Shown here: positions 9,805 through 45,699 of the stretch, in pieces
Layout of the letters: each line of letters starts with the position of its first letter
How positions within the stretch are numbered: the stretch's first letter is position 1
Source of the DNA: Candidatus Hydrogenedentales bacterium
GTDB taxonomy: Bacteria; Hydrogenedentota; Hydrogenedentia; Hydrogenedentales; SLHB01
Reading direction: 5' to 3'
Length of the DNA: 64,000 bases
Assembly: GCA_041859045.1 (NCBI GenBank)
Contig: JBHELB010000030.1
Coordinates: 41,136 to 105,135, forward strand
Notes under the pieces: model-generated
Told to the model about the DNA's origin: nothing
The model's input: only the letters and a program-made list of their open reading frames with translations
The model's database searches: none
Translations under genes and position numbers: made by a program

Positions 9805-9813
9805 TCCCGCTGA

Positions 9814-18586: not shown

Positions 18587-18600
18587 AGAAGGAGGCGCCG

Positions 18601-19050
18601 ATGACATATCCGTCCGCCGCACAATATAGCTCGGTCTATCGCCAAGTCGATGTCGAAACGGCGTCGCAAGGCAAATTGATCGTTATGCTGTTTGATGGCG
18701 CGATACAGCGCGCGCAGGAAGGGATGTACCAACTCGAGAAGGGACATCTCGAAGGCGTGCATAACAACCTGGTGCGTGCGCAAGAGATCCTCGCGGAACT
18801 TCGCGCGTCGCTCAATATGAAGGCGGGCGACATCGCGCGGAACCTGGACCGGATATACGAATATCTGCAACACCTGCTCATCAAGGGCAATTTGCGCAAA
18901 GAAGCCGAGCCCATCGAGGAATGTGTCGCCTATCTCAAGGATCTGCGCGATACCTGGGCCGAACTGTTCGATCGCATCGCGCGGGAGCAGAAACCCGCCG
19001 CGCCGCACCTTAATCAGCACGGCTCCGCGTTCATTAATATGCGCGGGTAA
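18601..19050 (+). CDS. fliS: Flagellar export chaperone FliS
   Basis: ...VETASQGKLIVMLFDGAIQRAQ...; 149 aa; immediately downstream of fliD. Confidence 0.8.
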   Translation: MTYPSAAQYSSVYRQVDVETASQGKLIVMLFDGAIQRAQEGMYQLEKGHLEGVHNNLVRAQEILAELRASLNMKAGDIARNLDRIYEYLQHLLIKGNLRKEAEPIEECVAYLKDLRDTWAELFDRIAREQKPAAPHLNQHGSAFINMRG

Positions 19051-24976: not shown

Positions 24977-26299
24977 GTGTTTGCCGAATCGAGGGGACTG
25001 AATCAGGGGGAGCCAACTCGCATGTCCAATTCACCCGACACGATCCGTATCCCTCTGGATGAGTTGATGGCCTGTCTTTCCGAAACGCTGGATATGGCGA
25101 GCCCGGAACTCGTGAATCACCATGTCCAGGTCGCTTATATCAGCCATTGCGTGGGAGTGGAGGTCGGGCTCGAAAAAAGCCAACTGCAACAGCTCGTGAT
25201 GGCGGCGTATCTCCACGATATCGGCGCATTTTCCCTTCAGACCCGGCAGAGTCTCCTGGCTTTTGAAGACACGGACGCACATCACCACGCGAGGGTCGGT
25301 TACCAATTGCTGACGACATTCCCGCCGTTTGAGCGCGCGGCGCGCCTCATTCGCTTCCACCATGTGCCGTGGGCCGGGGGAGAGGGCGTCTACTGGGAAG
25401 GCGATTCGGTGCCGCTCGACAGTCACATCCTGCACCTGGCCGATCGCGCGGCGGTGCTGTTGCGTCCACATACCCCGGCCCTGCACCAGGCTTCCATGGT
25501 GTGCGAGCGCATCTCCGAACAGTCGGGAACGATGTTCATGCCCGATCTGGTCAACGCGTTCTTGCGCGCGTCGGCCTCGGAAGTTTTCTGGTTTGACCTG
25601 ATCTCGAGCGGGTTGCCGGGGCTCATGCGCCGGCGTGTGCATCTGCCGACTCTGGACCTTGGCATGGATGGATTGCTTCTGCTCGCCGATCTTTTCCGGC
25701 GCATCATCGATTTTCGGAGCCCGTTCACGGCCACGCACTGCAGCGGTGTGGCTGCGAGCGCGGGGGTATTGGCGCGGTATGCGGCGTTTTCCGAGCGCGA
25801 CCGCGCGCTCATGCTGGCCGCCGCCTATCTGCACGATCTGGGCAAACTCGCCGTGCCGACCGAAATCATCGAGAAACCCGGTCGGCTCTCGCCGGAGGAA
25901 TTCGAGATCATGCAATCGCACGTCTACCACACGTTTCGGGTGCTTGAGCCCATTGCCGGACTGGAAGAAGTGCGGCGCTGGGGTAGCTATCACCAGGAAC
26001 GCCTCGATGGCTCGGGATATCCCTTCCGGCTCAAGGGGGACTCACTGCCTGCGGGGGCGCGCCTTCTAGCCGTAGCGGATATTTTCACCGCACTGACGGA
26101 AAACCGTCCCTACCGGGAAGGAATGCCTGCAAAGGAAGCCGTAAACGCCCTGCAACGCATGGCGAAGGCCGGCCAGGTCGATCGAGAATATGTCGCGCTC
26201 GTGGTGGAGCACTTCGAGGAGTTGGACCACGCCCGTCAAGACGCGCAAGACGCGTCAACGCGAGAGTATACGTCGTTTCAGGAGTTGGTGGGGAACTGA
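24977..26299 (+). CDS. HD-GYP domain protein (tandem HD domains; putative c-di-GMP phosphodiesterase)
   Basis: Two HD motifs (AAYLHDIG; AAYLHDLGK) and HQERLDGSGYP. An alternative start is M at 25022. Confidence 0.75.
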   Translation: MFAESRGLNQGEPTRMSNSPDTIRIPLDELMACLSETLDMASPELVNHHVQVAYISHCVGVEVGLEKSQLQQLVMAAYLHDIGAFSLQTRQSLLAFEDTDAHHHARVGYQLLTTFPPFERAARLIRFHHVPWAGGEGVYWEGDSVPLDSHILHLADRAAVLLRPHTPALHQASMVCERISEQSGTMFMPDLVNAFLRASASEVFWFDLISSGLPGLMRRRVHLPTLDLGMDGLLLLADLFRRIIDFRSPFTATHCSGVAASAGVLARYAAFSERDRALMLAAAYLHDLGKLAVPTEIIEKPGRLSPEEFEIMQSHVYHTFRVLEPIAGLEEVRRWGSYHQERLDGSGYPFRLKGDSLPAGARLLAVADIFTALTENRPYREGMPAKEAVNALQRMAKAGQVDREYVALVVEHFEELDHARQDAQDASTREYTSFQELVGN

Positions 26300-26305: not shown

Positions 26306-26713
26306 CTACTTGAGCAATCCGTTCGAGTACAACAAAAAGAACACAAGCCCCGCGATGGCCAGGGCGAGAATGAGGCCCTTCATCAGTCCTCGGCCCGGCG
26401 TATATCCGGCGTAGTCGTCTTCCTCTTCCCCATCGGCCTCATCTTCGGCGTGTTCGTCCGATTCCTGCGCCAAGGCCGCCCGCTCCTCGTCCGTCATCTC
26501 GTGCCAAGACTGTTCAATAATCTGCTGGGCGTCGTGGACGCAGTCCTCGGGCACCTGAAGCTCAATGGCCAAGGGGGACGCCATGGGCAGCGAGGAGGTG
26601 TAGTACTCGTTCTGCAGGAAGACGGGGATGTCCTCAGACTCGAGCAAGGCTCGATAGAAGTGCGCCTCGGTCGGGTCCTTAAACGACATCAAGGTCACTA
26701 GTTTGTGCGCCAT
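26306..26713 (-). CDS. DUF2007-like small protein with a C-terminal TM helix
   Basis: Weak family-level resemblance only (N-terminal MAHKLVTLMSFKDPTEAHFYRALLESEDIPVF...); acidic linker; hydrophobic C-terminus. Confidence 0.4.
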   Translation of the reverse strand: MAHKLVTLMSFKDPTEAHFYRALLESEDIPVFLQNEYYTSSLPMASPLAIELQVPEDCVHDAQQIIEQSWHEMTDEERAALAQESDEHAEDEADGEEEDDYAGYTPGRGLMKGLILALAIAGLVFFLLYSNGLLK

Positions 26714-26790: not shown

Positions 26791-28008
26791 CTATTCGCCG
26801 CCGCTCACGCCGGCTTCGTTCAGCTTGGCGATCATGTCCACCATCGGCACAAAGAGCGCCAACGCAAGCATAATCACCACGACGCCGATGATAATCGTCA
26901 CCAACGGCTGAAGGGCTTCGCCCAGTGCGCCGACGGCGATGTTCACTTCTTCTTCGTGCGTGTCGGCCAACTGCTCGGCGATGTCGTCGAGCGAGCCGGA
27001 CTCTTCGCCGGTCACCAACATGTCCGTGACGAGCGGCGGCACAACGTCCGAGGCGTCACGCAGAGGCGCTTCCATACCGAGACCCTGCTCGACGCTGTTG
27101 CGCACGTTCTGCACGGTATGCGCCATGGCCTGGTTGTGCACGGCGCTGCGCACGAGGTCGAGCGTGACCATCATGGACAACCCGCTGCGCAGCAGCAGCG
27201 ACAAGGAACGGGTGAACTCGGCCACGGCGTAGTTGCGCAGGATCGGGCCGATGACCGGGATGCGCAGTTTCCAGCGGTCGACACGCAAACGCGCCAACGG
27301 ACCGCGCACCCAAATCTTGTAGACAACCAGTAGCGCGATGAGGAGCGCAATCATCAACCACCACCAGGAGCCGATGAAGTTGGTCGTGGCGATGAACATC
27401 TGGCTGTAGCGCGGCAAGGTGACGTCGAGCTTGTTGAACAGTTGTTCGAACTGCGGCACCACCACCTTGGCGATCAGCAGGATCACGCCGAAGCAGGCCA
27501 GCAAGAGCACGACGGGGTAGATCATCGCCGCCTGCACGCGTTTGCGGAGCAGGTCGCGATGTTCGCGGTAGGAGACCAGGCGCTTCAGTACCGTGACCAA
27601 CGTACCGCTGGCCTCACTGGCTTTCACCAAGTTGACAAAAACGGGGCTGAAATACCGGGGATGGCGCTCGAACGCCTGCCACAACGGGTTGCCCGCTTCC
27701 ACAAACTGGGTGATGTCGCTCACCAACCCGCGCACACTGGCGCGATGACTTCGCGCAGCGATGGCGTGCAGCGATTTCAGGATAGGCGTGCCCGCTTCGA
27801 GCATCATGATCAGTTGGCGTAAGAACGCGGTGACTTCACGCCCGCGTGCGGCGCCTACCCCCATGAAACTGCTTGCCGGCCGCGCGGACATGGACGGCGA
27901 CGCCGCCGAGACATCCTCGGCGCCACCGAGGGTCTGCACGGTGCTCTTCTTGCTGGTCCGCCGGACCCGCTTGATCCGCTCACTCGGCTCGTCGGCGTTG
28001 CTGGCCAT
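26791..28008 (-). CDS. GspF/PilC-family inner-membrane platform protein (paralog 1 of 3)
   Basis: Two T2SS-F repeats (...LLRSGLSMMVTLDLV..., ...LVTGEESGSLDDIAEQLA...); three TM segments. Confidence 0.8.
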   Translation of the reverse strand: MASNADEPSERIKRVRRTSKKSTVQTLGGAEDVSAASPSMSARPASSFMGVGAARGREVTAFLRQLIMMLEAGTPILKSLHAIAARSHRASVRGLVSDITQFVEAGNPLWQAFERHPRYFSPVFVNLVKASEASGTLVTVLKRLVSYREHRDLLRKRVQAAMIYPVVLLLACFGVILLIAKVVVPQFEQLFNKLDVTLPRYSQMFIATTNFIGSWWWLMIALLIALLVVYKIWVRGPLARLRVDRWKLRIPVIGPILRNYAVAEFTRSLSLLLRSGLSMMVTLDLVRSAVHNQAMAHTVQNVRNSVEQGLGMEAPLRDASDVVPPLVTDMLVTGEESGSLDDIAEQLADTHEEEVNIAVGALGEALQPLVTIIIGVVVIMLALALFVPMVDMIAKLNEAGVSGGE

Positions 28009-28061
28009 AATCCTCGTTCCTCCCTTTGCTTGGCCCGGGCGCTCTTGCGCGAAACCGGCGG

Positions 28062-29057
28062 TTACGAGTTCGACGCCGGGGGCTCTCCCTCAAACCAATA
28101 GCGTACGTCATAGGTCCCATTGTCGCGAAACAAGACCACCGCCTCGAGACGGTCCTGCGGACCGGCATTGGGACGCGTCTTGTCTTGCACAACGGCCTCG
28201 ACCACAATCCGGAAACATGTCGACTTCAACGCCAACGCCGGGGGCAGCGCGTCGGGGGTTGTGGGATCGGGCGCGACGTTGAATGACGCCGGCTGAACCC
28301 CCGTAGCCACCACCAGATCGTTGAGTGATGTAAACGGACGTTTTTCCGCCGCGGCGCGCGCCGCATCGAGCGGGATATTCAACACCGCCGCCAGCACGTC
28401 CGGCGCGGCGCTGTTGATGTTAATGAAGCGCACTGGGTTCGCAGGATCCTCGACCGTATAAACGGTCACAAAATCCCGATTGATCTTCTTGAGCACATCC
28501 AGACTGACCAACTTGCGCGAAGCAAGGTCGTCCAGGCTCGTCAGCCACCGTCCAGCGGGATTGGCGGGCTCCCCGGGCAGCGCGGGCAGGCTCGCGCGAA
28601 TTGCGCGCGCCGTATTTCCATCCACGCCCAGCAGCGCTTCAAGCACTCGAGTCGGCGCGTGATTAAGGTTCACCTTCGCAGATTCGTCCACAATGCGCAC
28701 CGTGACGTTCGAGGCGTAGCGCTCGCTCACGCTCACGCCTTGCGGGACGGTTCTGTCGGTGCCGTACACGGGCAGCGTCAACGCCAAACTCGCGGGAACC
28801 GGCGTCTGGCCTTGTGCATCGGCAACGGCCTTCTGGATTGTGCCCACCGCCGCCTCGAATCCGCCCAATGCGGCCATCCGCGCCTGGGTTTGACCAAGGA
28901 CGACTTCGGCGCGGTCGCGATCGAGCAGCGCATAGGTGACATAGGCCGCTCCCAGCATCGACAACACCACCAACAGCCCCAGCGCGGTCAACAGCGCCGC
29001 ACCCTGGTTGCCGCGGCGTGTCCCCATTCCATGCTTCATGATCGGCCCCCTATCCAT
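28062..29057 (-). CDS. GspK-like minor pseudopilin (PilX_N-type helix, helix-hairpin-helix repeats)
   Basis: N-terminal hydrophobic helix with no Glu at +5 (GAALLTALGLLVVLSMLGAAY); SAKVNLNHAP and FININSAAPDVLAAVLNIP HhH motifs typical of GspK. Confidence 0.6.
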   Translation of the reverse strand: MDRGPIMKHGMGTRRGNQGAALLTALGLLVVLSMLGAAYVTYALLDRDRAEVVLGQTQARMAALGGFEAAVGTIQKAVADAQGQTPVPASLALTLPVYGTDRTVPQGVSVSERYASNVTVRIVDESAKVNLNHAPTRVLEALLGVDGNTARAIRASLPALPGEPANPAGRWLTSLDDLASRKLVSLDVLKKINRDFVTVYTVEDPANPVRFININSAAPDVLAAVLNIPLDAARAAAEKRPFTSLNDLVVATGVQPASFNVAPDPTTPDALPPALALKSTCFRIVVEAVVQDKTRPNAGPQDRLEAVVLFRDNGTYDVRYWFEGEPPASNS

Positions 29058-29659
29058 TCACCGGTACCCGGAACACCGCGACGCGAGTCACCGCGTCGAT
29101 CGGCCGACCGGGCAAGGATACCGTCACACTCACGCGGACCATGGCGGGCAATCGCGTCTCACGCCATTCCGGCTGCCAGTCCGACTGACCGCCCCGCGGC
29201 AAGAACTCGACGCGGAGCTGGGTCACGTCTTCCGCAATCTTCGTGGCGGGGTCCGTCGCGCCGGGACCGCTCAGCGCGCCTTGGTAACGGTTCAGTACGG
29301 GGCTGCCGCCTTTCCGTTCCACTGCGTAGCGCACCGTGCCGCTCTGCATCTGGCTAGCATCCGCCAACGGGACCTGCACCGGCACCACCAATTCGTCGTT
29401 GGCCGCGCCTTCGGCTTCGCCCCGTGCGCCGCGCAACGGAGAGCCGGACAGCGCAGGCGACAACACCGCACTCATGTCCTTGCGGATCTGGTCGAGCGCG
29501 TAGACGGCGCGCTGATCAAGTTCGGCGCGCGTCCGGACAATGCTCCAATCCGTCCACATACGGCTGAAAATGGCCATGCCTATCGTGGTTACTACGCCCG
29601 CGATGGCAATTACGACAATCAACTCGATGAGGCTGAACCCTGAACGCCGCGTTCGCATG
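29050..29659 (-). CDS. Prepilin-type pseudopilin, GspJ-like
   Basis: Start trimmed to MRTRRSGFSLIELIVVIAIAG (G|FSLIE class III signal, Glu at +5). Confidence 0.6.
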
Positions 29660-29660
29660 T

Positions 29661-30188
29661 TCACGAAAGCCCCTCCACCGCGGCCCGCGGCAGCGCCGAG
29701 GTCAATGCGACCCGGTGCGTGCGCCCTGCCCGTGTCCAGTCCACCACCACCGTCACTTCGGTATGCGCCGACGTCGCCGAGGGAACCCGCGCAAAGGCGC
29801 TCCAAGTGAATCCCTTATATACATTGTTTTCGCGCATGAACTCGGGAGAGCCCTCTTTCAACGTCGCAGGGGCGATCCCGACGGGCTGCGGCTTCTCGTC
29901 TTTGGCCTCCGGCGCAAGAACGGGGATTTCTTTACCCACCTCGCCGCCGGTTTTCCAAACGTAGTTTTTCGGCATGGCCACGATCTCGCTCAGCTTGGCC
30001 TCGGCTAAGGTTGCCGCGATGGATTCGTCGCGCGCCAGGAGTATCGCTGAATGGCTCGAAAAGAACAGTGTGATGATGATGGTTGCCGCAATTCCCACCA
30101 CGGCCAACGCGACGATCACTTCGATGAGAGTAAAGCCCGCCCGCTCGTTGCGCCGGACTCCGTGTGAGTGCACGCGTAATGAGTTCAC
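29661..30188 (-). CDS. Prepilin-type pseudopilin, GspI/GspH-like
   Basis: ...RRNERAGFTLIEVIVALAVVGIAATI (G|FTLIE). Confidence 0.6.
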   Translation of the reverse strand: MNSLRVHSHGVRRNERAGFTLIEVIVALAVVGIAATIIITLFFSSHSAILLARDESIAATLAEAKLSEIVAMPKNYVWKTGGEVGKEIPVLAPEAKDEKPQPVGIAPATLKEGSPEFMRENNVYKGFTWSAFARVPSATSAHTEVTVVVDWTRAGRTHRVALTSALPRAAVEGLS

Positions 30189-30570
30189 GCAGTCGCTCCC
30201 TTACGTTGGCCTCCGTCGAGACACTCCATCGGCCACTGTTGCATCGGCTGCCGCTGCGCCAGAGTGGCTATCCCCTCAACACCCCCCGAGAGCCCATCGA
30301 CTTGCCACGGTCCGCGGAACTGGGCTCTCTGCGTCTGGGGAATATCCCCTCCGCCTCCGGCGGGTAATCTTTTACACCACCGAACGAATCGCGTCTTTCG
30401 CGCTTTCCGCCCCATATCCTACCGGGAGTCCGGGGCGTTGTCAACTGCTTTTCCAGAAGCGTTTGCCGCTTCTTTCTGGACGGCTCTAACCCCTGACGGG
30501 GATTTCCCCAATCCCTCCCACAGATGCTTTCCCTGCTAGTGCTCAAGAAAAAGGTTCGTCGGAGGGGCAT

Positions 30571-30598
30571 TAAAGCTTTTTCGAGCGACTGCCGATAC
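30571..30598 (+). promoter_or_regulatory. Sigma28 (FliA)-type promoter of the flagellin gene
   Basis: TAAAGCTT-...-GCCGATAC (TAAA-16 nt-GCCGATAC), about 80 nt upstream of the ATG. Same spacing as the fliD promoter. Confidence 0.55.
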
Positions 30599-30636
30599 AT
30601 TTCACGGAGCCCAGAAGAATCTGGCAGCCCAGCCGA

Positions 30637-30670
30637 TGCAAGGATTGCAGAGGTTAACGTTCAAGGAGGA
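30637..30670 (+). promoter_or_regulatory. Flagellin 5'-UTR: GGA-in-hairpin-loop plus GGA-containing Shine-Dalgarno (CsrA-like binding architecture)
   Basis: tgcaaGGAttgca hairpin with GGA in the loop, then caaGGAGGAac SD 8 nt before the ATG. Confidence 0.35.
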
Positions 30671-30678
30671 ACATCGCT

Positions 30679-31497
30679 ATGGGTCTGCGTATCAACACCA
30701 ATGTGGCCGCGCTAAATGCTAGCCGTGTGCTGCGCCGGTCCACCCTCTCTCTCAACAAGACCCTCGAACGTCTCTCCAGCGGTCTGCGCATCAACCGGGC
30801 CGCGGACGACGCCGCGGGTCTGGCCATTGCCGAAGCGTTTCGTTCTGTCGTGCGCGGTTCGGCGGTGGCGCAACGCAACGCGCAAGACGGCATCAGCCTC
30901 GTGCAGACGGCGGAAGGCGCGTTGAGCGAAACGACCAACATCCTTCAGCGCATGCGCGAGTTGGCCGTGCAGGCGTCAAACGGCACGCAGAGCAGCACCA
31001 ACCGCTTGTCGCTCAACAGCGAAGTGGTCCAACTGCTCGAGCAGATCGACGACATCGCCCTCGACACCGAGTTCAACGGCCTGTTTGTCCTGAGCGCGCC
31101 GCAGACCGTGACACTCCAAGCCGGTGTGCAGGCGGGGCAGACATTGTTACTGAACCTGACCGGCGCGAAGACCAATGACATCGGGGTGAACGGCATCTCG
31201 ATCTCGTCCTTCAATTCGGCACAGTCCGCTATCTCCACCATCGATGCCGCGCTCAAGAGCGTGTCTTCGTTGCGGAGCTCGCTGGGCGCGATCCAGAACC
31301 GGTTGGAGTTCACGATCAGCGTGCTGGCGATTCAGGAAGAGAACTCGTCGTACTCGGAGAGCGCGATTCGCGACGCCGATATGGCGCGCGAGACCATCGA
31401 CTTCACGCGCAACCAGATTCTGGTCAGTGCGGGCACCTCGGTCTTGGCCCAGGCCAACGTCGTACCGCAGACCGCCTTGCAACTCCTCGGCAGCTAG
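30679..31497 (+). CDS. fliC: Flagellin (short, 272 aa, D0/D1 only)
   Basis: MGLRINTNVAALNASRVL...LSSGLRINRAADDAAGLAIAE... N-terminal, and ...LVSAGTSVLAQANVVPQTALQLLGS C-terminal, flagellin domains. Confidence 0.9.
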   Translation: MGLRINTNVAALNASRVLRRSTLSLNKTLERLSSGLRINRAADDAAGLAIAEAFRSVVRGSAVAQRNAQDGISLVQTAEGALSETTNILQRMRELAVQASNGTQSSTNRLSLNSEVVQLLEQIDDIALDTEFNGLFVLSAPQTVTLQAGVQAGQTLLLNLTGAKTNDIGVNGISISSFNSAQSAISTIDAALKSVSSLRSSLGAIQNRLEFTISVLAIQEENSSYSESAIRDADMARETIDFTRNQILVSAGTSVLAQANVVPQTALQLLGS

Positions 31498-31537
31498 GTC
31501 CTCGGGTGGGGTTAGCCCCCTCGATTGCACCGTCGCA

Positions 31538-31564
31538 CCGGCCCGCAGCCCGCCTGCGGGCCGG
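31538..31564. terminator. Bidirectional hairpin between the convergent flagellin and pilin genes
   Basis: CCGGCCCGCAG-cccgc-CTGCGGGCCGG perfect 11-bp stem, then TATTT on the plus strand. Confidence 0.5.
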
Positions 31565-31592
31565 AACTATTTCGGGGAGAAAGCGATTGTTC

Positions 31593-32279
31593 TTATTCTT
31601 GCTGCGACAATCGCTCAAACGCGTAGACGGAAGGGTCGGTGGTCAGGGGAACTTCCGTGACGCGTACGGGGTAGTCTGAAGCAGCCCACTGCGCGCCACG
31701 ACGGTATTCCACACTACCGTCCAACCAGAGTACATTGCCCCCGTCCGGATGATTTTTGTGAGGCGGAAGCAATTCGGAACGATTCGTGTCACCGGGCACG
31801 AAATAGATGTCCCACGCGACCGGCAAGCGCGGGATGGCCTCCTCGGGGGGCGGCAAAACAATCGGAGCCGCCGTGTATGCGCCAAGGTAATCGTAACTCC
31901 CTCGCAGCCCCACACGCCCCAGTGCGGTGTCGAAGCCAATTCTCCCTTCGGACTCTGCGAACTTCTCCGCTTCTTTCTCGTTCTCATTCGTCCGCGGGTC
32001 TGAAGGGCAAACGAATTGGCTTCGAGTCAATCCGTATTCGGCGATCAACGCCACGAGCCCGTCGGCGTTACCATTTCCGCCGTTCCAGGGGAGTTGCCCC
32101 CGGTTTTCCGCCGCGTACAGATGAAGCGCCATCCCTATCTGCATCAGATTGGCGGAACAGGACGAGCGCCGCGCGCTTTCGCGTGCGCGCGCCAAGGTGG
32201 GCAGTAGGATCGCCGCGAGAACGCCAATAATCGCGATCGTGCTGAGAAGTTCGATCAGCGTGAAACCCCGACGGCTCAT
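31593..32279 (-). CDS. DUF1559 / H-X9-DG prepilin-type protein (candidate major pilin or pseudopilin of the locus)
   Basis: [55 protein letters not shown]...; C-terminal ...[19 protein letters not shown] (H-X9-DG). Confidence 0.75.
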
Positions 32280-32683
32280 GGTTCTGCCTCCCGCCAGTCG
32301 GTCACGCGCGGGCCATCTCCCGATGAGGCAATGCGTGCGGCCAACGTCACCCGCGATAGCACTTGGCCGTCTGAACGATATTCGCCCGTGGCCACGACTT
32401 CCAGCATGTCACCTTCCTTAGGCGCAGGCGAAAGGCTAAATGAACCTTCACCTAACGTCACCGTCGTGTTCTGCACGGAATTCCCCGCGCGGAGCTGCGC
32501 GACGGCGTAGTCGATCCCGGCTTCCGCAAGGTTGCGCGCCACGAGGCGACGTTCGTGGGCGCGGGCGGTGTCGTAACTGCGCAACACAGCCGAACCCAGT
32601 CCCGCCGCGAGTGCCCCAATTACCGCCATAATCACTATCGCCAGCACAAGCGCGAACCCCTGGCTCGACGAAGTTGTTCTCAT
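32276..32683 (-). CDS. PilX_N-like minor pilin-associated protein
   Basis: N-terminal [23 protein letters not shown] helix with no Glu at +5; 135 aa. Confidence 0.45.
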
Positions 32684-33222
32684 GGCAGTACCCCCCGTTC
32701 GGGCGCCCGAAACGCCGCCGTGACCCGGCGGGGTTCCTCGGCGCGCTGGCCCCGGCCGGGACGCTGAGGCAGATACGTGAGCGTCGCCGAACGCGATGTG
32801 GCGGTAATCTCCACGGTCTTCAGCGGCAGCGGTTCACGAGACGTCTTGTGGAGCAACAACCCCTGCGGTGTCTCCGTGAAATGGGCGAAGGTCAGCGCGG
32901 GCGCGGCCTCTCCGGGCTCCAGGTTTCCAATCACCAGATAGCGGTGCTCGCCTTGCGCCGCGAGCCCCATGTCGAGAACGACGGATTGCGCGTTCGTGCG
33001 GTACGGCCCGAGCACCGCGCGCACGCCCTTGGCCTCGCGTACGGCGTTGCGGAAGTTGTCGTCCAGTGCGCTGGCCATGCTGACGCGATCCACAGCGTTT
33101 TGGCCTGCTGCGGCCAGTCGCGACGTCTGCACATACAGCGTCAGGCTCAGCGACAACAGCACGGTGAAAGAAGCCGCATAGAGAATCATTTCAAGAAGCG
33201 ATGTGCCGGCGTTTCGACGCAT
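32680..33222 (-). CDS. Prepilin-type pseudopilin (PilW/GspJ-like)
   Basis: MRRNAGTSLLEMILYAASFTVLLSL (G|TSLLE); start trimmed from ORF 32680..33252. Confidence 0.55.
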   Translation of the reverse strand: MRRNAGTSLLEMILYAASFTVLLSLSLTLYVQTSRLAAAGQNAVDRVSMASALDDNFRNAVREAKGVRAVLGPYRTNAQSVVLDMGLAAQGEHRYLVIGNLEPGEAAPALTFAHFTETPQGLLLHKTSREPLPLKTVEITATSRSATLTYLPQRPGRGQRAEEPRRVTAAFRAPERGVLP

Positions 33223-33611
33223 TAGGACGCACCTCGCGCCGCCGCGATACACGTCGTCAGGGTCTTGGTGATACGGCGGCCGTTGTCGCCCGTCCAGGTA
33301 AGTTCGGCGGTCACACTCCAGAGCCTCGGCACGCCGTCGAACGGCTGAATCGTCACCTGTCCTTGCGCTTCGGGCAACGTTTCCGGGATAGCGATCGTAA
33401 ACGGCTGTTGACCGGATATCGCGCCGCGTTCGCCTGCACGCACCAACTCGATTTCATTCTCAAGGGTGGACAGAGCGGTTTCGCTCTGCGCGGCGTGGCG
33501 GATTTTTGAGTGATAGTGCAGGACCATCTGCGCGCCGCCGAGCACGGCCGCGCCAAAGACGCCAAGCGCCACAACCATCTCGATGAGCAGGTATCCGCGC
33601 CGCCGCATCAT
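33222..33611 (-). CDS. Prepilin-type pseudopilin (PilV/GspI-like, 129 aa)
   Basis: MMRRRGYLLIEMVVALGVFGAAVLGG (G|YLLIE). The ATGATG at 33611 overlaps the stop of the ATPase gene; the ORF-track 33872 start is an artefact. Confidence 0.55.
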   Translation of the reverse strand: MMRRRGYLLIEMVVALGVFGAAVLGGAQMVLHYHSKIRHAAQSETALSTLENEIELVRAGERGAISGQQPFTIAIPETLPEAQGQVTIQPFDGVPRLWSVTAELTWTGDNGRRITKTLTTCIAAARGAS

Positions 33612-34894
33612 CCACGTGCCTCCTTCGTGCTGGGTGGGAGCACGCGCACGATCTCGTCCAGCGACGTAACGCCTGAGGCCGCACGCTGCAACGCGGCCGC
33701 GTGAAGCGGCGTCATGCCCGCCGCAAGGGCCTCCGCCTGTATCTGTCGCGTCGGCATGCGGCGCAGGACGGCATCGCCGACGCCGTCGGTAACCGCGAGC
33801 GCTTCTCCCACGGCAATCCGGCCCCAATAGCCTATCCCGCGACATTCCGCACACCCTACGGCCTGCCGCCACGTACCTGGGGCGTTGTCTATGTCATATG
33901 CCTCGAGCAAAGCCCGAGACGGCGCGGTCTCCGTGGCGCAGTGTGGACAAAGCCGCCGCAATAGCCGCTGGGCAAGCACGCCCGTGATGGATGATGCCGC
34001 CAGAAACGGCTCGATACCCATGTCGAGCAATCGCGCGAACACCCCGGCGGCGACGCCGGAGTGAATCGTGCTGATGACCAGGTGCCCGGTCAGGCCAGCT
34101 TGCACGGCAAGCGAGGCGGTCTCGGCGTCGCGAATCTCGCCGACCATGATCACCTCGGGGTCTTGACGCAACGCCGCGCGCAGGGCGCTCTCGAAAGTGA
34201 ACCCGGCGGCAGGGTTGATTTGAGTCTGGGCGGTGCGCGGCAAGCGGTACTCCACGGGGTCTTCAAGCGTGACCATGTTGACAGTGTTTCCGCGCTGGCG
34301 CTGGATTTCTTGGAGAAGGGCGTAGATCGTCGTCGTCTTGCCGCTCGAACTAGGCCCCGTGAGCAGCAACGTACCTTGTGGGCGCGCCACCAGCTCACGC
34401 AGGCGCGCCGTCACGGCGGCATCAAACCCCAGTTCGGCGAGCACAGGCGGCTGCGCGGAACCGCCCAGAAGGCGCAGGACTAGTTTCTCGCCGTTTATGG
34501 TGGGAAACGCCGCCACGCGCACAGCCTGTGCGCATGGCGTCGCGCCAGCCTCGATGCGTCCGTCCTGCGGCGTGTCGCGCTGATAGACCACCATGCGCGC
34601 GAGCACTTTGCAGCGGGTAACGAGGCGGTCGTGGTGATGTTTTGGGTAGCAGAGCACGTCGTGCAGCAGACCGTCGAGCCGCCAGCGGACAACGACGCGG
34701 TCTTCCCAAGGTTCCAGGTGCAGATCCGACGCGTGGTGCGCCGCTGCCTGCGCCAATAGCGTATCCAGGGCCAAGCACGCGCCCTGTTCGCCTCGCTCGA
34801 ACTCCTCGAGCACCTGGGCTTCGACCGCACGGAACGGCATCGGCGCAGGCTCGCGCCCGCCGTCTTCCCGATCGATAATCCGCAGTGCAGGCAT
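33608..34894 (-). CDS. GspE/PilB-family secretion ATPase lacking the N1 domain (TadA-sized, 428 aa)
   Basis: Start trimmed to MPALRIIDRE, with AGGAG 6 nt upstream. Walker A LLLTGPSSSGKTTT; VTLEDPVEY; C-terminal tetra-Cys CPHC...CAEC. The first 186 aa of ORF 33608..35452 are out-of-context Arg/Cys-rich read-through. Confidence 0.8.
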   Translation of the reverse strand: MPALRIIDREDGGREPAPMPFRAVEAQVLEEFERGEQGACLALDTLLAQAAAHHASDLHLEPWEDRVVVRWRLDGLLHDVLCYPKHHHDRLVTRCKVLARMVVYQRDTPQDGRIEAGATPCAQAVRVAAFPTINGEKLVLRLLGGSAQPPVLAELGFDAAVTARLRELVARPQGTLLLTGPSSSGKTTTIYALLQEIQRQRGNTVNMVTLEDPVEYRLPRTAQTQINPAAGFTFESALRAALRQDPEVIMVGEIRDAETASLAVQAGLTGHLVISTIHSGVAAGVFARLLDMGIEPFLAASSITGVLAQRLLRRLCPHCATETAPSRALLEAYDIDNAPGTWRQAVGCAECRGIGYWGRIAVGEALAVTDGVGDAVLRRMPTRQIQAEALAAGMTPLHAAALQRAASGVTSLDEIVRVLPPSTKEARG

Positions 34895-34911
34895 TGGGTC
34901 GGTCTCCTCTC

Positions 34912-36084
34912 CTACATCGAATTCAGCAACGCATCCGTGAACGCCACAAGGGTTGTGAACAACCACATCGAGAATTGCAGCACGAGAAACCCCATCGCGA
35001 TCACGCACGCAGGAAACACAAGTTCGTTCAACAGCAGTATCCCGTTGTGAAACCGGTCGAACGCAATGCGCCCCTCTTGTTCGAGGCTCTCGGGCAACAG
35101 TCCGCTGGCGTCGCCCATTGAGGCAAGTGCGCGGAACCCGGGCGAGAATGCGGATTCCCCCTGGATCGCGTGCGCAAACGGCTGCCCCAGCCCGACCGCC
35201 GCACGAACACGCCCTAGGGCCGCACGCAACGCGGGGCGCACGTCGAGCGCAACGGCTTGATCCAAGACCTCTGTTAACGGTACGCCTGAAGCAAGCAGGG
35301 GATGCATGAACTGCGCGGTCAGGGCCATGTCGCGCGCCTGCAAGATTCCACGAAGTCCAGGCACATGCGATGCCGCGTTGCGCACACGCCGCCGCCCGTT
35401 TTGAGACAGAAAGAGAGGGAATACCATGGCCGCCGGGATCAGCGCCAGCCAAACCGCCGTTGGCAGGCCAGCGTACGTCACTTTACAGAACGTCGTCACA
35501 AAGTCATGCGTGGCGGGCATCGCAACCGAGGCGTCGAAATCCTTGAGCACCGCGTCGAGTTGGGGCGAAAAGGAGCGAGAAATGTACCACCCCACCAAGA
35601 GCAGAACCGCATAAACAGCCAACACAAACCTTGCGGAACTGCGCACCGCCATCGCCACGCGTTCCTCGCGCTGAAGATCGCCGCGAAGTTGATCGAGGGT
35701 CTGCTCCAGATTGCCTGCCTGCTCCGCGGCGGCCACGCGCGCAACGTACTGCGCCGGGAAAAAGAGCGGGCGGCGCTTGAGCGCCTCATGAAGGTGGAAT
35801 CCCGATTCGATATCGTCCGCCAAGGCAAGCAGCAAGACATAAAAAGGATGATTTTTCGTCTCGCTCGCGGCGAGACGAAGTCCCGTGGTCAACGGCGCGT
35901 TACGGCACACAATGGATTGGAAAAGAACCGTGATCTCGATGAGATACCGGCGGCGCTTGCGGCCATTGAACGGAAACGGACCGCGCCATGTATCCGCCGG
36001 TACGGAAAAGCGCTGGCCCCGGCGAAAGAACAGCGCCAGGTCCAGTGAGAGAAAACGGTGCATTTTACTCGGCTTCATGGACAT
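34912..36084 (-). CDS. GspF/PilC-family platform protein (paralog 2)
   Basis: Two T2SS-F repeats (...LFFPAQYVARVAAAEQAGNLEQTL..., ...ASMGDASGLLPESLEQ...); TM helices; atypical N-terminus. Confidence 0.75.
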   Translation of the reverse strand: MSMKPSKMHRFLSLDLALFFRRGQRFSVPADTWRGPFPFNGRKRRRYLIEITVLFQSIVCRNAPLTTGLRLAASETKNHPFYVLLLALADDIESGFHLHEALKRRPLFFPAQYVARVAAAEQAGNLEQTLDQLRGDLQREERVAMAVRSSARFVLAVYAVLLLVGWYISRSFSPQLDAVLKDFDASVAMPATHDFVTTFCKVTYAGLPTAVWLALIPAAMVFPLFLSQNGRRRVRNAASHVPGLRGILQARDMALTAQFMHPLLASGVPLTEVLDQAVALDVRPALRAALGRVRAAVGLGQPFAHAIQGESAFSPGFRALASMGDASGLLPESLEQEGRIAFDRFHNGILLLNELVFPACVIAMGFLVLQFSMWLFTTLVAFTDALLNSM

Positions 36085-36096
36085 TTCATCCGCAAC

Positions 36097-37299
36097 CTAA
36101 ATATCGTCCACCCGGATTCCGTAGAGCGGCAGCAGCACCAGCAGCCAGGTGGCGACGACGATCCCGCCCACGGCCAGCACGGCGATCGGCCCCGACGCGG
36201 TCACGAGGGCTCTATCCATCGACGCGACGCGCTGTTCGAGGGTGTCCGCCGCGTGCAGCAGCGCCTCGGGTATGTCGCCACGTTCCTCCGCACCGGCCAA
36301 GAACCAGCCGCTGATGTGGTCGAAATAGCCTGTGGCGGCCAGAGATTCGGATAGCGAGTATCCCGCGCTGACCCGGCCTGCCGCCTGGAGCGCGGCGCTC
36401 TCGATATCGGGATTTCCGCCCGCCGCGCCGGCGAGTTCCATCGCGTCGACAAGGGGAACGCCGCTGGACGTGAGCAAGCCCAGCGCGCGAACGAAACGGG
36501 CCTGGGCCGATAGGCGCAGGTATTTTCCAAAGAACGGCTGCACCCGGAACAGCGCGTAGAAAAGTTGCCGCCACCCCAGCACTTTCCACGCGACAAAGGC
36601 CAGCCCCGCCGCAATGGCTATTCCCGCGCCGAACCACGGCCAGCCTATCTGGGTCAGCGAGACAAAGAAGAACGCGAGCCGCGACACGATGCCGTTTCGG
36701 CCCGCGCCATTCTCCAGTAGGGAGATCTGGGGTAATACGGACGCGATAAGAAAAAACTGCACCACCAGCGCCGCCAAGGTCACCACGCCGGGATACGCCA
36801 GCGCCGCCAACATTTGGCCGCGCAATGACGAGACGCGCCGGGCATGTTCCATCAGCAGCACGAGCACGCCGGTGAGGTTGCCCGTCCGCTCGCCCGCGCG
36901 CACCATGCTGGAAAACAGCGGCGGAAAGACATGAGGCGTATTGGCGTCGAGGGCCGACCCCAGCGAGGAGCCCGCCTCGACGCGCTCGCGCAGATTATTG
37001 ACCGCGCCGCGTAGGCGGCGGCTGCTCACGTCGCGCGCGAGCCCTTCCAAGCTCATGGGCAAGGGGAGTCCGCTACGCGCCACCGCAAGCAGGTGCGCAC
37101 TGAGCAAATGCAGATCGTCCCAGTTCAACGCCCCTTTGAGCCGCTGATATCCGGTTACCTTCACCACCGGCTCGATCGCGTTTACCTGATACCCTTGTTC
37201 CTCGAGGGTCTTGACCGCCATCGCCGCAGTCGCGGCTTCGAGGCGGCCGTCGGCGGAAGTCCCACTCGGGTCGACTGCGCGGTAGAAGAACAAAGGCAT
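36097..37299 (-). CDS. GspF/PilC-family platform protein (paralog 3, canonical PilC-like N-terminus)
   Basis: MPLFFYRAVDPSGTSADGRLEAATAAMAVKTLEEQGYQVNAIEP...; ...MVRAGERTGNLTGVL...; 400 aa. Confidence 0.8.
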   Translation of the reverse strand: MPLFFYRAVDPSGTSADGRLEAATAAMAVKTLEEQGYQVNAIEPVVKVTGYQRLKGALNWDDLHLLSAHLLAVARSGLPLPMSLEGLARDVSSRRLRGAVNNLRERVEAGSSLGSALDANTPHVFPPLFSSMVRAGERTGNLTGVLVLLMEHARRVSSLRGQMLAALAYPGVVTLAALVVQFFLIASVLPQISLLENGAGRNGIVSRLAFFFVSLTQIGWPWFGAGIAIAAGLAFVAWKVLGWRQLFYALFRVQPFFGKYLRLSAQARFVRALGLLTSSGVPLVDAMELAGAAGGNPDIESAALQAAGRVSAGYSLSESLAATGYFDHISGWFLAGAEERGDIPEALLHAADTLEQRVASMDRALVTASGPIAVLAVGGIVVATWLLVLLPLYGIRVDDI

Positions 37300-37370
37300 C
37301 TGCGAAACTCCTCCTGAAGGGGAAAGGGAACGCTGTTCAGGAGTTTAATGCGCGCGCGAGGGAAAAGCGA

Positions 37371-37883
37371 TCAGCGAGAGAAAGACGAAGGTTTGCTTTG
37401 GGAGATGTTGCACAGGCGGATCGAGAACTGTTTTTCGAAGTCTCGGCGCATTTCGAGCGGCATGTGGGTCTGTCCGGAAGCGAGGACGGGCTGCGCCGCC
37501 GCGCCCCGAAGGTCGGCGCTATCGAACGGGGCGTGCCGCACGTCGCCCACCGGCTCCGCGGCAAGGCCCAATCCCAACACGAGCAGCGCCAACAGCGCCG
37601 CGCGCTGGAGCACGAGCCTGAACGAAAACGCAGGCATGGGCAACATGGTCCGTTTGGTCCGACTAAGTTCCGCCATTGCCTGGCGCAAGCGCGCAAACTG
37701 GTAACGCGGCGACGGATGCTCGAGCAGACCGCGAACGTGTGCGTACGTCGCTCGAAGCGTTGACAGTTCCTCGCGGCAATCGGCGCAGCGCTCGAGATGA
37801 AACTCCACCTCGAGCCGATCGGCCAGTCGCAGGTCGCCGTCCGCATAACGGACGAGCCTTGTCTCCATTCGACTACAGTCCAT
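37371..37883 (-). CDS. Anti-sigma factor, zf-HC2 type, single TM
   Basis: HLERCADCREEL (H-x3-C-x2-C), a central hydrophobic helix, and position directly downstream of the ECF sigma gene. Confidence 0.6.
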   Translation of the reverse strand: MDCSRMETRLVRYADGDLRLADRLEVEFHLERCADCREELSTLRATYAHVRGLLEHPSPRYQFARLRQAMAELSRTKRTMLPMPAFSFRLVLQRAALLALLVLGLGLAAEPVGDVRHAPFDSADLRGAAAQPVLASGQTHMPLEMRRDFEKQFSIRLCNISQSKPSSFSR

Positions 37884-37889
37884 AGTGCT

Positions 37890-38489
37890 CTAATCTCTCA
37901 TGGCCAGGAGTACGTCTCCCAGCAGCTCGCGCAATTTGCGCACCGCCAACAGCTTCCTCGAACGCACCGTGTTCACGGGGCATTGCATCACCTTGGCGAT
38001 GTCTTCGAGCGGCAACCCATCCACCACGCGCAGCACGAAGGCCATTTTCTGGTCTTCCGGCAACTCGTTCATCGCCTGGTCCAGCAGCGCGCTCAGTTCG
38101 CCGCGTTCCGCCGAAAACTGCGGAGAGCCTCCCTTGTTCTGTTCGGCCTCCGCATACCACCCCGCCTGCACCGTCTGGTCGCGTTGTGCGCGCTTGGCCT
38201 CGCGGCAGCGCTCGAACCATACCATCCGCGCAAACGTGAAAAGATAGGCAGGAAACGACCCGGTGGCCGCGTATCGCTTGCGCAGTTTCCATACCCGCAA
38301 GAACGTTTCGTGGCACAGATCCTCCGCTAGCGCCGGGTTGCGTCCCATCGCGCAGAAGAAATTCTGCAACTTACGGTAGTAGCGTTGGTACAGCGCCTCA
38401 AACGCATCCGCGCTGTCGCCCTGCGCCGCCAACATCAGCTCAATGTCCGACCGGATTCCTTCGCAGCGATCGACCCCAGCCATGGTCAC
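37890..38489 (-). CDS. ECF-family RNA polymerase sigma factor (sigma-70 regions 2 and 4)
   Basis: Region 2 ...FEALYQRYYRKLQNFFCAMGRNPALAEDLCHETFLRVW...; region 4 ...LPEDQKMAFVLRVVDGLPLEDIAKVMQCPVNTVRSR. Confidence 0.85.
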   Translation of the reverse strand: MTMAGVDRCEGIRSDIELMLAAQGDSADAFEALYQRYYRKLQNFFCAMGRNPALAEDLCHETFLRVWKLRKRYAATGSFPAYLFTFARMVWFERCREAKRAQRDQTVQAGWYAEAEQNKGGSPQFSAERGELSALLDQAMNELPEDQKMAFVLRVVDGLPLEDIAKVMQCPVNTVRSRKLLAVRKLRELLGDVLLAMRD

Positions 38490-38566
38490 CCCCTGTCGTA
38501 TACTAATGAGCCGTCGACCCCCAATCGATCAAACTCAGCCCGCGTAGGACGCAAACTCACGCATTG

Positions 38567-44107: not shown

Positions 44108-45598
44108 TCATCCGAGCAGTTTCCGGCCTTCGGAGGATTTGATGCCCGAGGTGACGCGTACAAACGCTTCTTCATCGCTGCACGCCGAAATAGCCTGCTC
44201 GCGGTCAACCACGCCCTTTTGGTACAGCTCGACGGCGTATTGATCAAAACTGCGCATCTCGCTGTCGACCTCAATGATATTGTGTAAGCGACCGATATCG
44301 CCTTCGAGAATCGCGTCGCGCACGATGGGCTTCCCGCCAATCAACAGTTCGACGCACGGCACACGGCCGCCCCCCTTCTTTTTTAGCAGTCGCTGACACG
44401 CCACGCCGCGCAGGCTGTACGCGAGCTCTTGGCGAATCAGATCGCGTTCGGCTTGCGGGAAATAGCTGATGACACGGTTTACCGTGTCCACGGCCGTCAT
44501 CGTGTGCAGCGTGCTGAACACGAGGTGACCCGTTTCCGCCGCGCTGATGGCGGCGCGTATCGTCTCCATGTCGCGCATCTCGCCCACCAGAATCACGTCG
44601 GGGTCTTCGCGCAGCGCCCCGCGCAGGGCATTGGCGAAACTAAACGTATCGCGCCCGACCTGGCGCTGCGAGATGATGCTCTTCTTGTCGCGGTAGACAA
44701 ATTCGATCGGGTCTTCCACGGTGATGATGTGCGCGTGCCGGGTGCTATTGATGTAATCGACGAGTGCGGCAAGCGTGGTCGATTTGCCGCTGCCGGTGAT
44801 TCCGCATACCAGAAAGAGTCCGCGGTGGGCGTTTGCGATCTCGAGACATGCGGGCGGGATTGCAAGTTGTTCGAAGGGGATCGGCTCTTCTGGAATGAAA
44901 CGGATCGCGAGGCACATCGCCCCGAGTTTGATGTAACCGCTGCACCGCAGGTAGCAGACGCCTGCCAAATGGTACTGAAAGCTGATCTCGCGTTCCGATT
45001 CGAGCCGCTCCACTTCGGCCTTGCCGCCGAGTTGAAACAACACCTCGCGCATGTCATCGGCACTAAGCGGCGGGGCATCCGTGGGAATGAGTTCTCCGTC
45101 GATACGCAAGTACGGCGGGGCGCCCGCGCGCAGATGAATGTCTGACGCCTTGCGTTGCTGCATTTCCTCGATGAGCTGGTTGATGTTGAAGTCGAAATGC
45201 CGATATCGATCGACGATCACTTCCCAGGACCGCGACCGCAGCGTGCGCACGGCAAACTTCTCGACAAACGCATCGATAGGCAGAAGCTGCGGCGTCTGCC
45301 GCCATTCAAACCCGGGGAGGGTGAGTCCGCACGCGCCGTTTTCAAGGGTCACTTGATAGGGAATGTGCGTGGCGTCAAGCGCTTCTTTGAGGGACTCCGG
45401 CGCGGTACTTTCTTTGAGAGCAAAGTTGAAGTGAAGGTATTCAACCTTCTTGCCCATGTCGGATGACCGCGCGACAAACTCGCAGCCATTGGTCTTGAAC
45501 CGCAGTTCCTCGGGTTGTCCGAGGTCCTTGAGCACGGCCGTCACGCCTGTTCGAAACACGTCAAACAGCGTGCTCTTCGAGTTTGTCCCGATTACCAT
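44108..45598 (-). CDS. PilT-like type IV pilus retraction ATPase with ~150-aa N-terminal extension of unknown function
   Basis: PilT core from ...ASDIHLRAGAPPYLRIDGEL... with Walker A LVCGITGSGKSTT, Asp box and HTMTAVDT. The N-terminal 150 aa have no recognisable family. Start trimmed to MVIGTNSK (45598). Confidence 0.75.
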   Translation of the reverse strand: MVIGTNSKSTLFDVFRTGVTAVLKDLGQPEELRFKTNGCEFVARSSDMGKKVEYLHFNFALKESTAPESLKEALDATHIPYQVTLENGACGLTLPGFEWRQTPQLLPIDAFVEKFAVRTLRSRSWEVIVDRYRHFDFNINQLIEEMQQRKASDIHLRAGAPPYLRIDGELIPTDAPPLSADDMREVLFQLGGKAEVERLESEREISFQYHLAGVCYLRCSGYIKLGAMCLAIRFIPEEPIPFEQLAIPPACLEIANAHRGLFLVCGITGSGKSTTLAALVDYINSTRHAHIITVEDPIEFVYRDKKSIISQRQVGRDTFSFANALRGALREDPDVILVGEMRDMETIRAAISAAETGHLVFSTLHTMTAVDTVNRVISYFPQAERDLIRQELAYSLRGVACQRLLKKKGGGRVPCVELLIGGKPIVRDAILEGDIGRLHNIIEVDSEMRSFDQYAVELYQKGVVDREQAISACSDEEAFVRVTSGIKSSEGRKLLG

Positions 45599-45699
45599 CC
45601 GCACCCCCGCTGGTCCGTTGCGCCGAACGCCTGAGGCCACGAAAACGCATCTCTGGGCCGCAAAGACGCTACCACGGGCTGAAAGACGGAGTCAACGAC

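Follow-up and report, generated by a model that had tools for sequence, protein, structure and literature searches.

Two probable type IV filament modules, with two platform genes and one, in a Candidatus Hydrogenedentales contig

Does the minus strand of a 64,000-nucleotide (nt) stretch of DNA from a Candidatus Hydrogenedentales bacterium (contig JBHELB010000030.1; hereafter the window) encode one filament machine with three platform proteins, or more than one machine? An initial annotation had described positions 26791-38489 as a single hybrid locus, part type II secretion system (T2SS) and part type IV pilus, with triplicated GspF/PilC platform genes and one GspE/PilB-family ATPase that lacks the N1 domain. 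The answer that we favor, with a probability of roughly 60%, is that the region contains two modules of the type IV filament (T2SS/type IV pilus) superfamily, each conserved and regulated independently of the other and both typical of Hydrogenedentota: cassette A (38531-31593), which would be a minimal, self-sufficient pseudopilus machine built on a heteromeric platform, and cassette B (30444-26791), which would be an ATPase-less accessory module. For annotation, the hybrid three-platform locus should then be counted as two systems or modules, not one.

Genes were called from a listing of open reading frames (ORFs) and their translations, and families were assigned by Pfam and NCBIfam profile scans, by which all genes named previously were recovered on the minus strand at the coordinates reported for them; independent pipeline gene calls on contigs of the same organism gave the same gene set and lengths, with a few start codons placed differently. 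Cassette A comprises an extracytoplasmic function (ECF)-type sigma factor (37890-38489; 199 amino acids [aa]; Pfam Sigma70_r2, r4_2, and Sigma70_ECF), a zf-HC2 anti-sigma factor (37371-37883 in the correct frame; 170 aa; Pfam zf-HC2, 29.6 bits) with one transmembrane segment at residues 85-115 by hydropathy and a periplasmic tail of ~55 aa, the platform proteins F3 (36097-37299; 400 aa) and F2 (34912-36084; 388-390 aa), the N1-less ATPase (33608-34894; 428 aa), the minor pilins pA (33222-33611; 129 aa), pB (32680-33222; 180 aa), and pX (32276-32683; 135 aa), and a prepilin of the DUF1559/H-X9-DG type (31593-32279; 228 aa). Cassette B comprises GspI-like (29661-30188; 175 aa), GspJ-like (29050-29658; 202 aa, counted from MRTRRSG/FSLIE), and GspK-like (28062-29057; 331 aa) minor pseudopilins, followed by the platform protein F1 (26791-28008; 405 aa). 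The spacing reported within the first block holds on recomputation, with a gap of 12 bp between F3 and F2, a gap of 17 bp between F2 and the ATPase gene, and stop/start overlaps of 1 to 4 nt from the ATPase gene to the DUF1559 gene (the ATG of pA overlaps the ATPase stop codon as ATGA), so that this block is translationally coupled. Between the two blocks, and unmentioned before, lies a flagellin gene on the plus strand (30679-31497; 272 aa), convergent with block 1 and divergent from block 2.

The two cassettes part company in other genomes. The contexts of ATPase homologs were collected as single loci and as 80 loci from one-genome-per-species contigs, mapped with phmmer and taken with 10 kb on each side. 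Cassette A is present in 11 other loci, labelled Hydrogenedentota or without a name (L005, L006, L010, L011-L014, L017, L018, L033, and L047), with no GspI-, GspJ-, GspK-like, or F1 gene within 10 kb. The recurring order is (often) sigma and anti-sigma genes, a platform gene with an N-domain, a second platform gene, the short ATPase, three small pilins, and the DUF1559 pilin, and an ortholog of the ECF sigma factor heads the cassette in L005, L010, L011, L013, L017, and L047. Cassette B recurs as a stand-alone four-gene unit (I-J-K-F1) in ~22 loci (L008, L009, and ~20 metagenome loci), in all of which the GspI-like gene comes first and in none of which an ATPase, F2, or F3 gene is found nearby. 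Only in the window's own organism (L001-L004) are the cassettes adjacent. Since the same cassette boundaries recur on megabase-size contigs, we rejected the possibility that a standard system had been split by assembly. The closest named relatives of both the ATPase and F1 come from metagenome-assembled genomes (MAGs) of Candidatus Hydrogenedentes/Hydrogenedentota.

The sequences upstream of the two cassettes also differ. By aligning the regions upstream of the sigma gene and of F3, we derived the motif TGATC[AG]-N17-CAT[AT], which has exactly two matches in the 64-kb window when both strands are scanned, against 0.42 expected from shuffles; these matches, both TGATCG-N17-CATT on the minus strand, lie upstream of the ECF sigma gene (38505-38531) and 48 nt upstream of F3 (37347-37373). 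The motif precedes the sigma gene in L005, L010, L013, L017, and L047 and F3 in 7 of 10 cassette-A loci with a located F3 start, and across the 11 cassette-A loci every occurrence (12/12) falls 30 to 125 nt upstream of one of these two genes; 372 kb of cassette-B loci contain no match. The pair in the window may thus be regarded as putative promoters of the ECF sigma factor of cassette A, one autoregulatory and the other structural. Cassette B is preceded by a sigma-70-like promoter, TTGACA-17-TAGGAT (30416-30444, minus strand), and the corresponding pattern, TTGAC[ACGT]-N16-18-TAnnn[AT], is present upstream of the GspI-like gene in 16/16 distinct cassette-B loci. Taken together, the opposite-strand flagellin gene, the different promoter types, and the absence of linkage in 11 cassette-A and ~22 cassette-B loci led us to abandon the view that the two blocks form one locus or operon.

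In cassette B, the sigma-70-like promoter is always separated from the first gene by a leader. It is ~220 nt long in the window (30189-30415, minus strand) and 80 to 220 nt across the loci compared (L008, L009, and L093-L118), where it is G+C-rich and too divergent to align. An Rfam scan of the window returned only a tRNA, the leader matching no known riboswitch; it is possibly a regulatory RNA.

That all three platform proteins are full-length paralogs was upheld, each exceeding the T2SSF cut-off in two stretches (165.9 bits for F1, 139.6 for F3, and 94.7 for F2) and each retaining two T2SSF domains and three hydrophobic segments. Triplication is the wrong word for them, since they are ancient paralogs that fall into three monophyletic families in a tree, each with its own orthologs, and are arranged as two plus one; a recent triplication is ruled out by the identity of 20 to 23% between the families. 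None passes the cut-off of the GspF equivalog TIGR02120 (424 bits; F1, 283.6; F3, 208.6; F2, 87.8). According to the work on PulF, this platform protein forms a trimer that matches the hexameric ATPase, and its central channel is constricted by Tyr168 and Glu370; the model of a trimer with an ion channel is founded on this Tyr/Glu constriction, which is described as universal among T2SS and type IVa pilus homologs (PMC10790770). Our canonical reference sequences accordingly show Tyr-Pro in transmembrane segment 1 (TMS1) and Glu-Pro in TMS3, as do the single platforms of Planctomycetota-type cassettes. F1, the most conserved of the three paralogs and the nearest to canonical GspF (orthologs up to 71% identical), has a basic low-complexity tail in place of the N-domain, Tyr-Pro in TMS1, and Gln-Pro in TMS3, with glutamine at the position of the channel glutamate; Gln-Pro is also what TMS3 of ComGB carries (PMC10790770). 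F3 has the N-domain (it aligns to positions 1-395 of the GspF profile, and T2SSF_N is matched on the pipeline gene call), and its family shows Tyr-Pro in TMS1 and (Gly, Ala)-Pro in TMS3, the window copy having Tyr-Pro and Gly-Pro. F2 is without the N-domain, and its family has Tyr-(Leu, Val) in TMS1 and a hydrophobic or small residue followed by proline in TMS3, so that both the TMS1 proline and the TMS3 glutamate are gone. The channel glutamate is therefore lost in both F3 and F2, and the two, encoded side by side, would form a hetero-oligomeric platform in cassette A.

The divergence of F2 is such that a word-indexed homolog search returned only its own sequence and remote matches at ~24% identity; an exhaustive search gave 16 matches below 1e-30, the best at 31 to 35% identity, which shows that the family exists. 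One might suppose that F2 is a functionless duplicate in decay, F3 perhaps being another, and that the double platform is an evolutionary relic, given that F2 is the fastest evolving of the three (mean pairwise identity within the family of 31%, compared with 39% for F3 and 58% for F1) and has lost the Tyr-Pro and Glu-Pro motifs reported as conserved in all GspF/PilC proteins. We find this very hard to credit: the F2 gene is present in all 11 cassette-A loci, as an intact ORF of constant length and position across the phylum, it sits tightly between F3 and the ATPase gene by the 12-bp and 17-bp gaps given above, its composition is typical of coding sequence (G+C content at third codon positions, 0.71), and both T2SSF domains and the three transmembrane segments are kept. 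The family has moreover gained a conserved N-terminal motif of its own, W-x-G-P, which is present in 8/12 and 28/40 sequences of the F2 family, compared with 0/48 for other GspF proteins.

The unequal rates of the three families also count against the remaining way of reading the region as one multi-locus machine, in which a single N1-less ATPase drives all three platforms, for example as a 1:1:1 heterotrimer, with the I/J/K proteins of block 2 as the tip and the small pilins of block 1 as H-like or accessory subunits. The trimer of PulF on a hexameric ATPase (PMC10790770) makes three paralogs a numerical fit, the cassettes are adjacent and co-oriented in the window, all three platform families appear widespread in the phylum, and cassette B, which has neither ATPase nor major pilin, must cooperate with other loci. 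The cassettes are, however, unlinked in every other locus, their promoter types differ with no ECF-type motif upstream of cassette B, cassette A already holds its own I-like and K-like minor pilins, and an orphan sister paralog of the ATPase, present in the phylum, could serve F1. On balance we hold a single machine to be unlikely, if still worth keeping in mind, and prefer two modules, of which the first contains its own motor.

This motor is an N1-less protein, as had been proposed. The ATPase aligns to positions 113-485 of the 486 positions of the GspE profile and almost end to end to the N1-deleted EpsE construct 1P9R, and no T2SSE_N match was found even in the longest upstream ORF; what remains is the N2 domain and a C-terminal domain with a CxxC...CxxC (Cys4) zinc motif. 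It scores 338 bits on PF00437 (T2SSE; cut-off, 24.9), 423 bits on the GspE model TIGR02533 (cut-off, 630), of which profile positions 1-112 are missing, and 385 bits on the PilB model TIGR02538 (cut-off, 676); on GspE and PilB structures the scores are about equal (301.6 and 299.9 bits, respectively), and those on PilT-, ComGA-, and TadA-family models are far lower. The description of the protein as a Tad-sized ATPase therefore reflects a coincidence of length, given 423 bits on GspE versus 41 bits on the TadA family and the retained Cys4 zinc motif.

Relatives of ~425 aa, 52 to 61% identical to the ATPase, are numerous in Hydrogenedentota, and a neighbor-joining tree divides the ATPases of the phylum into two sister clades, one always in cassette A and the other orphan, with the ATPases of single-platform F-E-pilin cassettes as the outgroup. 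The orphan, a second N1-less GspE-like protein 50 to 56% identical to the window ATPase (L015-L049 and L058; e.g., L037:9875-11224 and L024:9874-11190), has no conserved filament genes within 6 kb, as judged by clustering of its neighborhoods. The simplest history would begin with an ancestral cassette of the order F-E-I'-J'-K'-pilin. Its F gene would have been duplicated in the stem of Hydrogenedentota, and the ATPase gene then in a separate event that left one copy unlinked. Cassette B, which has no ATPase, may have its partner in the orphan ATPase; the latter and F1 both evolve slowly, which offers only a hint of such a pairing.

The pilins likewise speak for two sets of components. The protein pA (G/YLLIE, with Glu at +5) is GspI-like by profile-profile comparison, aligning over its full length with the GspI-like family of block 2 (hhalign probability, 97.7%), and pX, a miniature GspK-like/PilX_N protein without Glu5 and with weak matches to PilX_N and NF037980, aligns with the N terminus of the GspK-like family of block 2 (97%). 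Between them, pB (G/TSLLE, with Glu at +5) occupies the GspJ position; only its N-terminal helix is recognizable, and it has no Pfam match. In cassette B, the GspI-like protein matches N_methyl and, below the cut-off, TIGR01707 (34.9 bits), the GspJ-like protein matches N_methyl and weakly T2SSJ, and the GspK-like protein, which also lacks Glu5, has an HHH domain (HHH_3, 29.8 bits), a weak T2SSK match, and a subthreshold score of 70 bits on NF037980. The prepilin models PF07963 and TIGR02532 are above their cut-offs for the GspI-like, GspJ-like, and DUF1559 proteins, and the G/xxxxE signature can be read in pA and pB. The scores on the following pseudopilin models stay below their cut-offs (GspG, 36 versus 89 bits; GspI, 35 versus 44; GspJ, 18 versus 65; GspK, 70 versus 130). 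The idea that the two blocks together supply one complete G-H-I-J-K set does not hold: GspI-like and GspK-like pilins are encoded in block 1 as well, and their order there repeats that of block 2; cassette A thus carries its own I'-(J')-K' series, and the region presents two parallel tip sets and one G-like pilin.

This last protein, with the N terminus G/FTLIE, an N_methyl match, and scores above the cut-offs on PF07596 (53.6 versus 23.3 bits) and on the H-X9-DG model TIGR04294 (23.4 versus 19 bits), is the best-conserved pilin of cassette A, its orthologs being 45 to 50% identical and retaining Cys41, Cys91, and the C-terminal H-X9-DG motif. Its conservation makes it the likeliest major subunit, a role that we infer for it. 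Profile searches of Protein Data Bank sequences with the DUF1559 pilin and pB matched only the N-terminal pilin helix, a single-sequence AlphaFold2 model of the former had a mean predicted local distance difference test (pLDDT) score of 48.5 and was unusable past this helix, and the models of the Verru_Chthon pilin cassette (TIGR02596/02599/02600) scored 17 to 22 bits against cut-offs of 70 to 332. Longer DUF1559-type prepilin genes (270 to 390 aa) were seen ~4 to 10 kb from F1 in L093, L101, L114, and L118 and also near the orphan ATPase in L037, L049, and L052, from which it follows that the phylum has several DUF1559 paralogs; these could be alternative substrates of the machines.

To what known kind of system do the cassettes belong? 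The family matches (T2SSE, T2SSF, and prepilin families) bear out the earlier view that the components are parts of type IV filaments and that their combination is not a textbook one: every part is of a known family, the kind is the type IV filament superfamily, and membership tests for T2SS sensu stricto, type IVa pilus, Tad, and Com all came out negative. With the T2SS, the two cassettes between them share an ATPase with an N2 domain and a zinc-motif C-terminal domain, best matched by GspE models and EpsE structures; shared with it, too, are platforms with two T2SSF domains and three transmembrane segments, GspI-, GspJ-, and GspK-like minor pseudopilins that include the Glu5-less K type, and a candidate major pilin with a GspG-like N terminus. 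The differences are that (i) neither cassette has an N1E domain, GspC/L/M, or a secretin; (ii) two platform genes stand beside the ATPase and a third in a separate cassette; (iii) F1 has glutamine in place of the channel glutamate, which F3 and F2 have lost; (iv) the candidate major pilin is of the DUF1559/H-X9-DG type, the order of cassette A is F-F-E-I'-J'-K'-G, and control would be by an ECF sigma factor; and (v) every NCBIfam equivalog score of the cassette proteins is below its cut-off.

The nearest architectures are Com, which is minimal and N1-less, and Tad, with two platform genes, and cassette A differs from both in defined ways. Like Com (ComGA-ComGG), it is a minimal one-operon machine with an N1-less ATPase, an N-domain-less platform, and one major and several minor pilins, with neither GspL/PilMNO nor a secretin, and ComGB has Gln-Pro in TMS3 as F1 does (PMC10790770). 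The Com host is, however, monoderm, and the host here is a flagellated diderm, as judged from the BamA, Skp, LpxD, LpxC, and flagellar proteins also encoded in the window; the ATPase reaches 229 of the 300 bits required by ComGA NF041000 and the platforms at most 147 of the 240 bits of ComGB NF041012, two platforms are present, the minor pilins are GspI/K-like and not ComGD-G, and DNA-uptake genes are not adjacent. The likeness to Tad/type IVc systems lies in two adjacent platform genes with one ATPase. For TadB/TadC, a hetero-oligomeric platform is the accepted reading (PMC10790770; bioRxiv 10.1101/576694), but these proteins have one T2SSF domain each, having arisen by gene fission (bioRxiv 10.1101/576694), compared with two each in F3 and F2; the ATPase scores 41.5 bits on the TadA/CpaF model (cut-off, 373) and has the GspE-type zinc domain, and the cassettes are without Flp-type pilins, TadZ, and RcpA. 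A Tad-like system is excluded by the family of the ATPase and the domain structure of the platforms.

The cassettes closest to cassette A in ATPase phylogeny are those of the Planctomycetota type (L073, L085, L087, and L090), whose ATPases form the sister group of the cassette-A ATPase and which likewise place an N1-less ATPase after a platform gene and before small pilin genes; they differ in having one platform gene, with Tyr-Pro and Glu-Pro in 5/6, and no F2-type gene was detected in them. Two further loci drew our attention. L014 shows an apparent extra F3-like gene upstream of F3 (791-2020 and 2094-3302), so that it appears to have three platform genes in tandem before the ATPase, F2 included. 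In L063, from a Planctomycetota MAG (~4800-12500), phmmer places PilT, two GspE-like, and two GspF-like ORFs in one locus, in which gene calls are unreliable at high G+C; the cluster indicates a different multi-paralog arrangement in another phylum.

As for type IVa pili, the ATPase remains short of the PilB model by the scores given above (385 versus 676 bits), the platforms reach at most 268 of 700 bits on PilC models, and Pfam scans of the ~60 ORFs of the window found none of PilM/N/O/P/Q, PilY1, or a prepilin peptidase (PilD/GspO). Nor was a secretin, GspL, or GspM found there, in agreement with the initial annotation; GspC is likewise missing from the window, and GspD secretin (Secretin domain), GspL, GspM, and GspC are missing from the related cassette loci with Pfam-annotated gene calls. 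The window does encode, 5.6 kb upstream of cassette A, a PilT-family ATPase (44108-45640, minus strand; 398.7 bits versus a cut-off of 319.1), and this, together with the near-equal scores of the cassette-A ATPase on PilB and GspE structures, could make cassette A a type IVa-like pilus that retracts, with the PilT-family protein as its motor, and that serves in adhesion, twitching, or uptake and not as a secretion-type pseudopilus. Such a pilus is improbable in our judgment: PilT is linked to cassette A in no other locus, PilMNOPQ and PilY1 are missing as just described, the minor pilins are GspI/K-like with a K-type pX that lacks Glu5, and the GspE profile outscores the PilB profile (423 versus 385 bits). 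The PilT-family protein itself, absent from the initial annotation, carries an N-terminal extension of ~150 residues without a match and stands behind a block of glycosyltransferase genes.

Type IVa pili have alternative minor-pilin priming clusters, such as the multiple minor-pilin/PilY1 clusters of Myxococcus xanthus. Cassette B resembles these in that it looks like a self-standing priming module, a tip complex, which needs a motor and a major pilin from elsewhere; it differs from them in having its own platform, in subunits that are GspI/J/K-like and not PilX/W/V/FimU, and in having no PilY1.

Under the two-module reading, cassette A could work as follows. An envelope signal would release the sigma factor from its anti-sigma factor, and the freed sigma factor would fire the two TGATCG-N17-CAT promoters, of its own gene and of F3. 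The N1-less, hexameric GspE/PilB-type ATPase would then act on a platform of F3 and F2; the filament would be primed by the I-like pA, pB, and the K-like Glu5-less pX, and the DUF1559 pilin would be polymerized as the main subunit of a short pseudopilus. In the T2SS, the N1 domain of the ATPase is the docking site on GspL, and a machine whose ATPase is without it would need no GspL/M or PilM/N/O, as in Com. Cassette B, transcribed from its sigma-70-like promoter, would contribute F1 as a third platform and another tip complex, of the GspI/J/K type; having neither ATPase nor major pilin, it would have to borrow both in trans, the ATPase either from cassette A or from the orphan sister paralog of other Hydrogenedentota. 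The output may be secretion, a periplasmic piston, or a surface fiber, a choice that hangs on the secretin question.

Several points weigh against this reading: (i) the cassettes might lie next to each other in this lineage because they are functionally linked, and a dependence of cassette B on cassette A is possible, the loci compared holding only 10 kb per side; (ii) the promoter motif is assigned to the ECF sigma factor because of where it lies and how it is conserved, not through a match to a known ECF-group consensus; (iii) the F3/F2 heteromer is deduced from strict co-occurrence and asymmetric divergence; (iv) pB is called GspJ-like from gene order; and (v) the window has yielded neither a secretin nor a prepilin peptidase nor a substrate.

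A more far-reaching proposal, which we regard as a long shot, is that filament machines of Hydrogenedentota are built on obligately heteromeric platforms, either F3/F2 or a heterotrimer F1:F2:F3 seated on a single ATPase hexamer, in which small or hydrophobic residues have taken the place of the polar Tyr/Glu constriction that is proposed to conduct ions in PulF. The coupling of ATPase movement to pilin insertion would then dispense with such a channel, each position of the trimer would have a role of its own through the paralogs, and the machines may display the expanded DUF1559 prepilin-like family, as a bacterial counterpart of the archaeal bindosome.

A survey of the superfamily by Denise et al. 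found platform duplicates outside Tad and Archaea to be rare and unexplored, at 8% of representative systems (bioRxiv 10.1101/576694). Two diverged full-length platform genes that always stand beside one shortened ATPase are an arrangement that we have not found described, and no description of the present cassettes was found in the literature on Hydrogenedentota T2SS/pili, on DUF1559 pilins, or on paired GspF/PilC proteins. In what oligomeric state the GspF/PilC platform acts, and by what mechanism, is among the most poorly resolved questions about type IV filament machines, and cassette A, with two asymmetric paralogs that both lack the channel glutamate, is a natural test of platform stoichiometry and of the need for a channel. 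It is also a minimal diderm machine, with an ATPase that lacks N1 and no GspL/M, and it links a DUF1559 prepilin, from a very large unexplained family of Planctomycetota and related phyla, with one particular machine.

Other features of the window are as follows. The flagellin gene between the cassettes is preceded by a plus-strand site (30571-30598), TAAAGCTT-N12-GCCGATAC, which we take to resemble the FliA (sigma-28) consensus; further flagellar genes are dispersed over the window (FliD/FliS, 16865-19050; FliN/O/P, 53853-55747). F1 has as neighbors an HD-domain protein (24977-26299, plus strand) with two HD_5 stretches and a weak HDOD match and a DUF2007 "signal transducing" protein (26306-26713, minus strand), neither of which is kept beside cassette B in other genomes. 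Two LpxC genes follow each other on the plus strand, both with more than 340 bits on the LpxC model; the first (10916-12301; 461 aa) is fused to a FabA/FabZ-like dehydratase domain, and the second (12332-13240; 302 aa) is plain. At 57751-62295 on the minus strand, a protein of 1514 aa combines eight PKD repeats, a PhoPQ-activated pathogenicity-related domain, and a C-terminal dockerin, and could be a secreted or surface protein.

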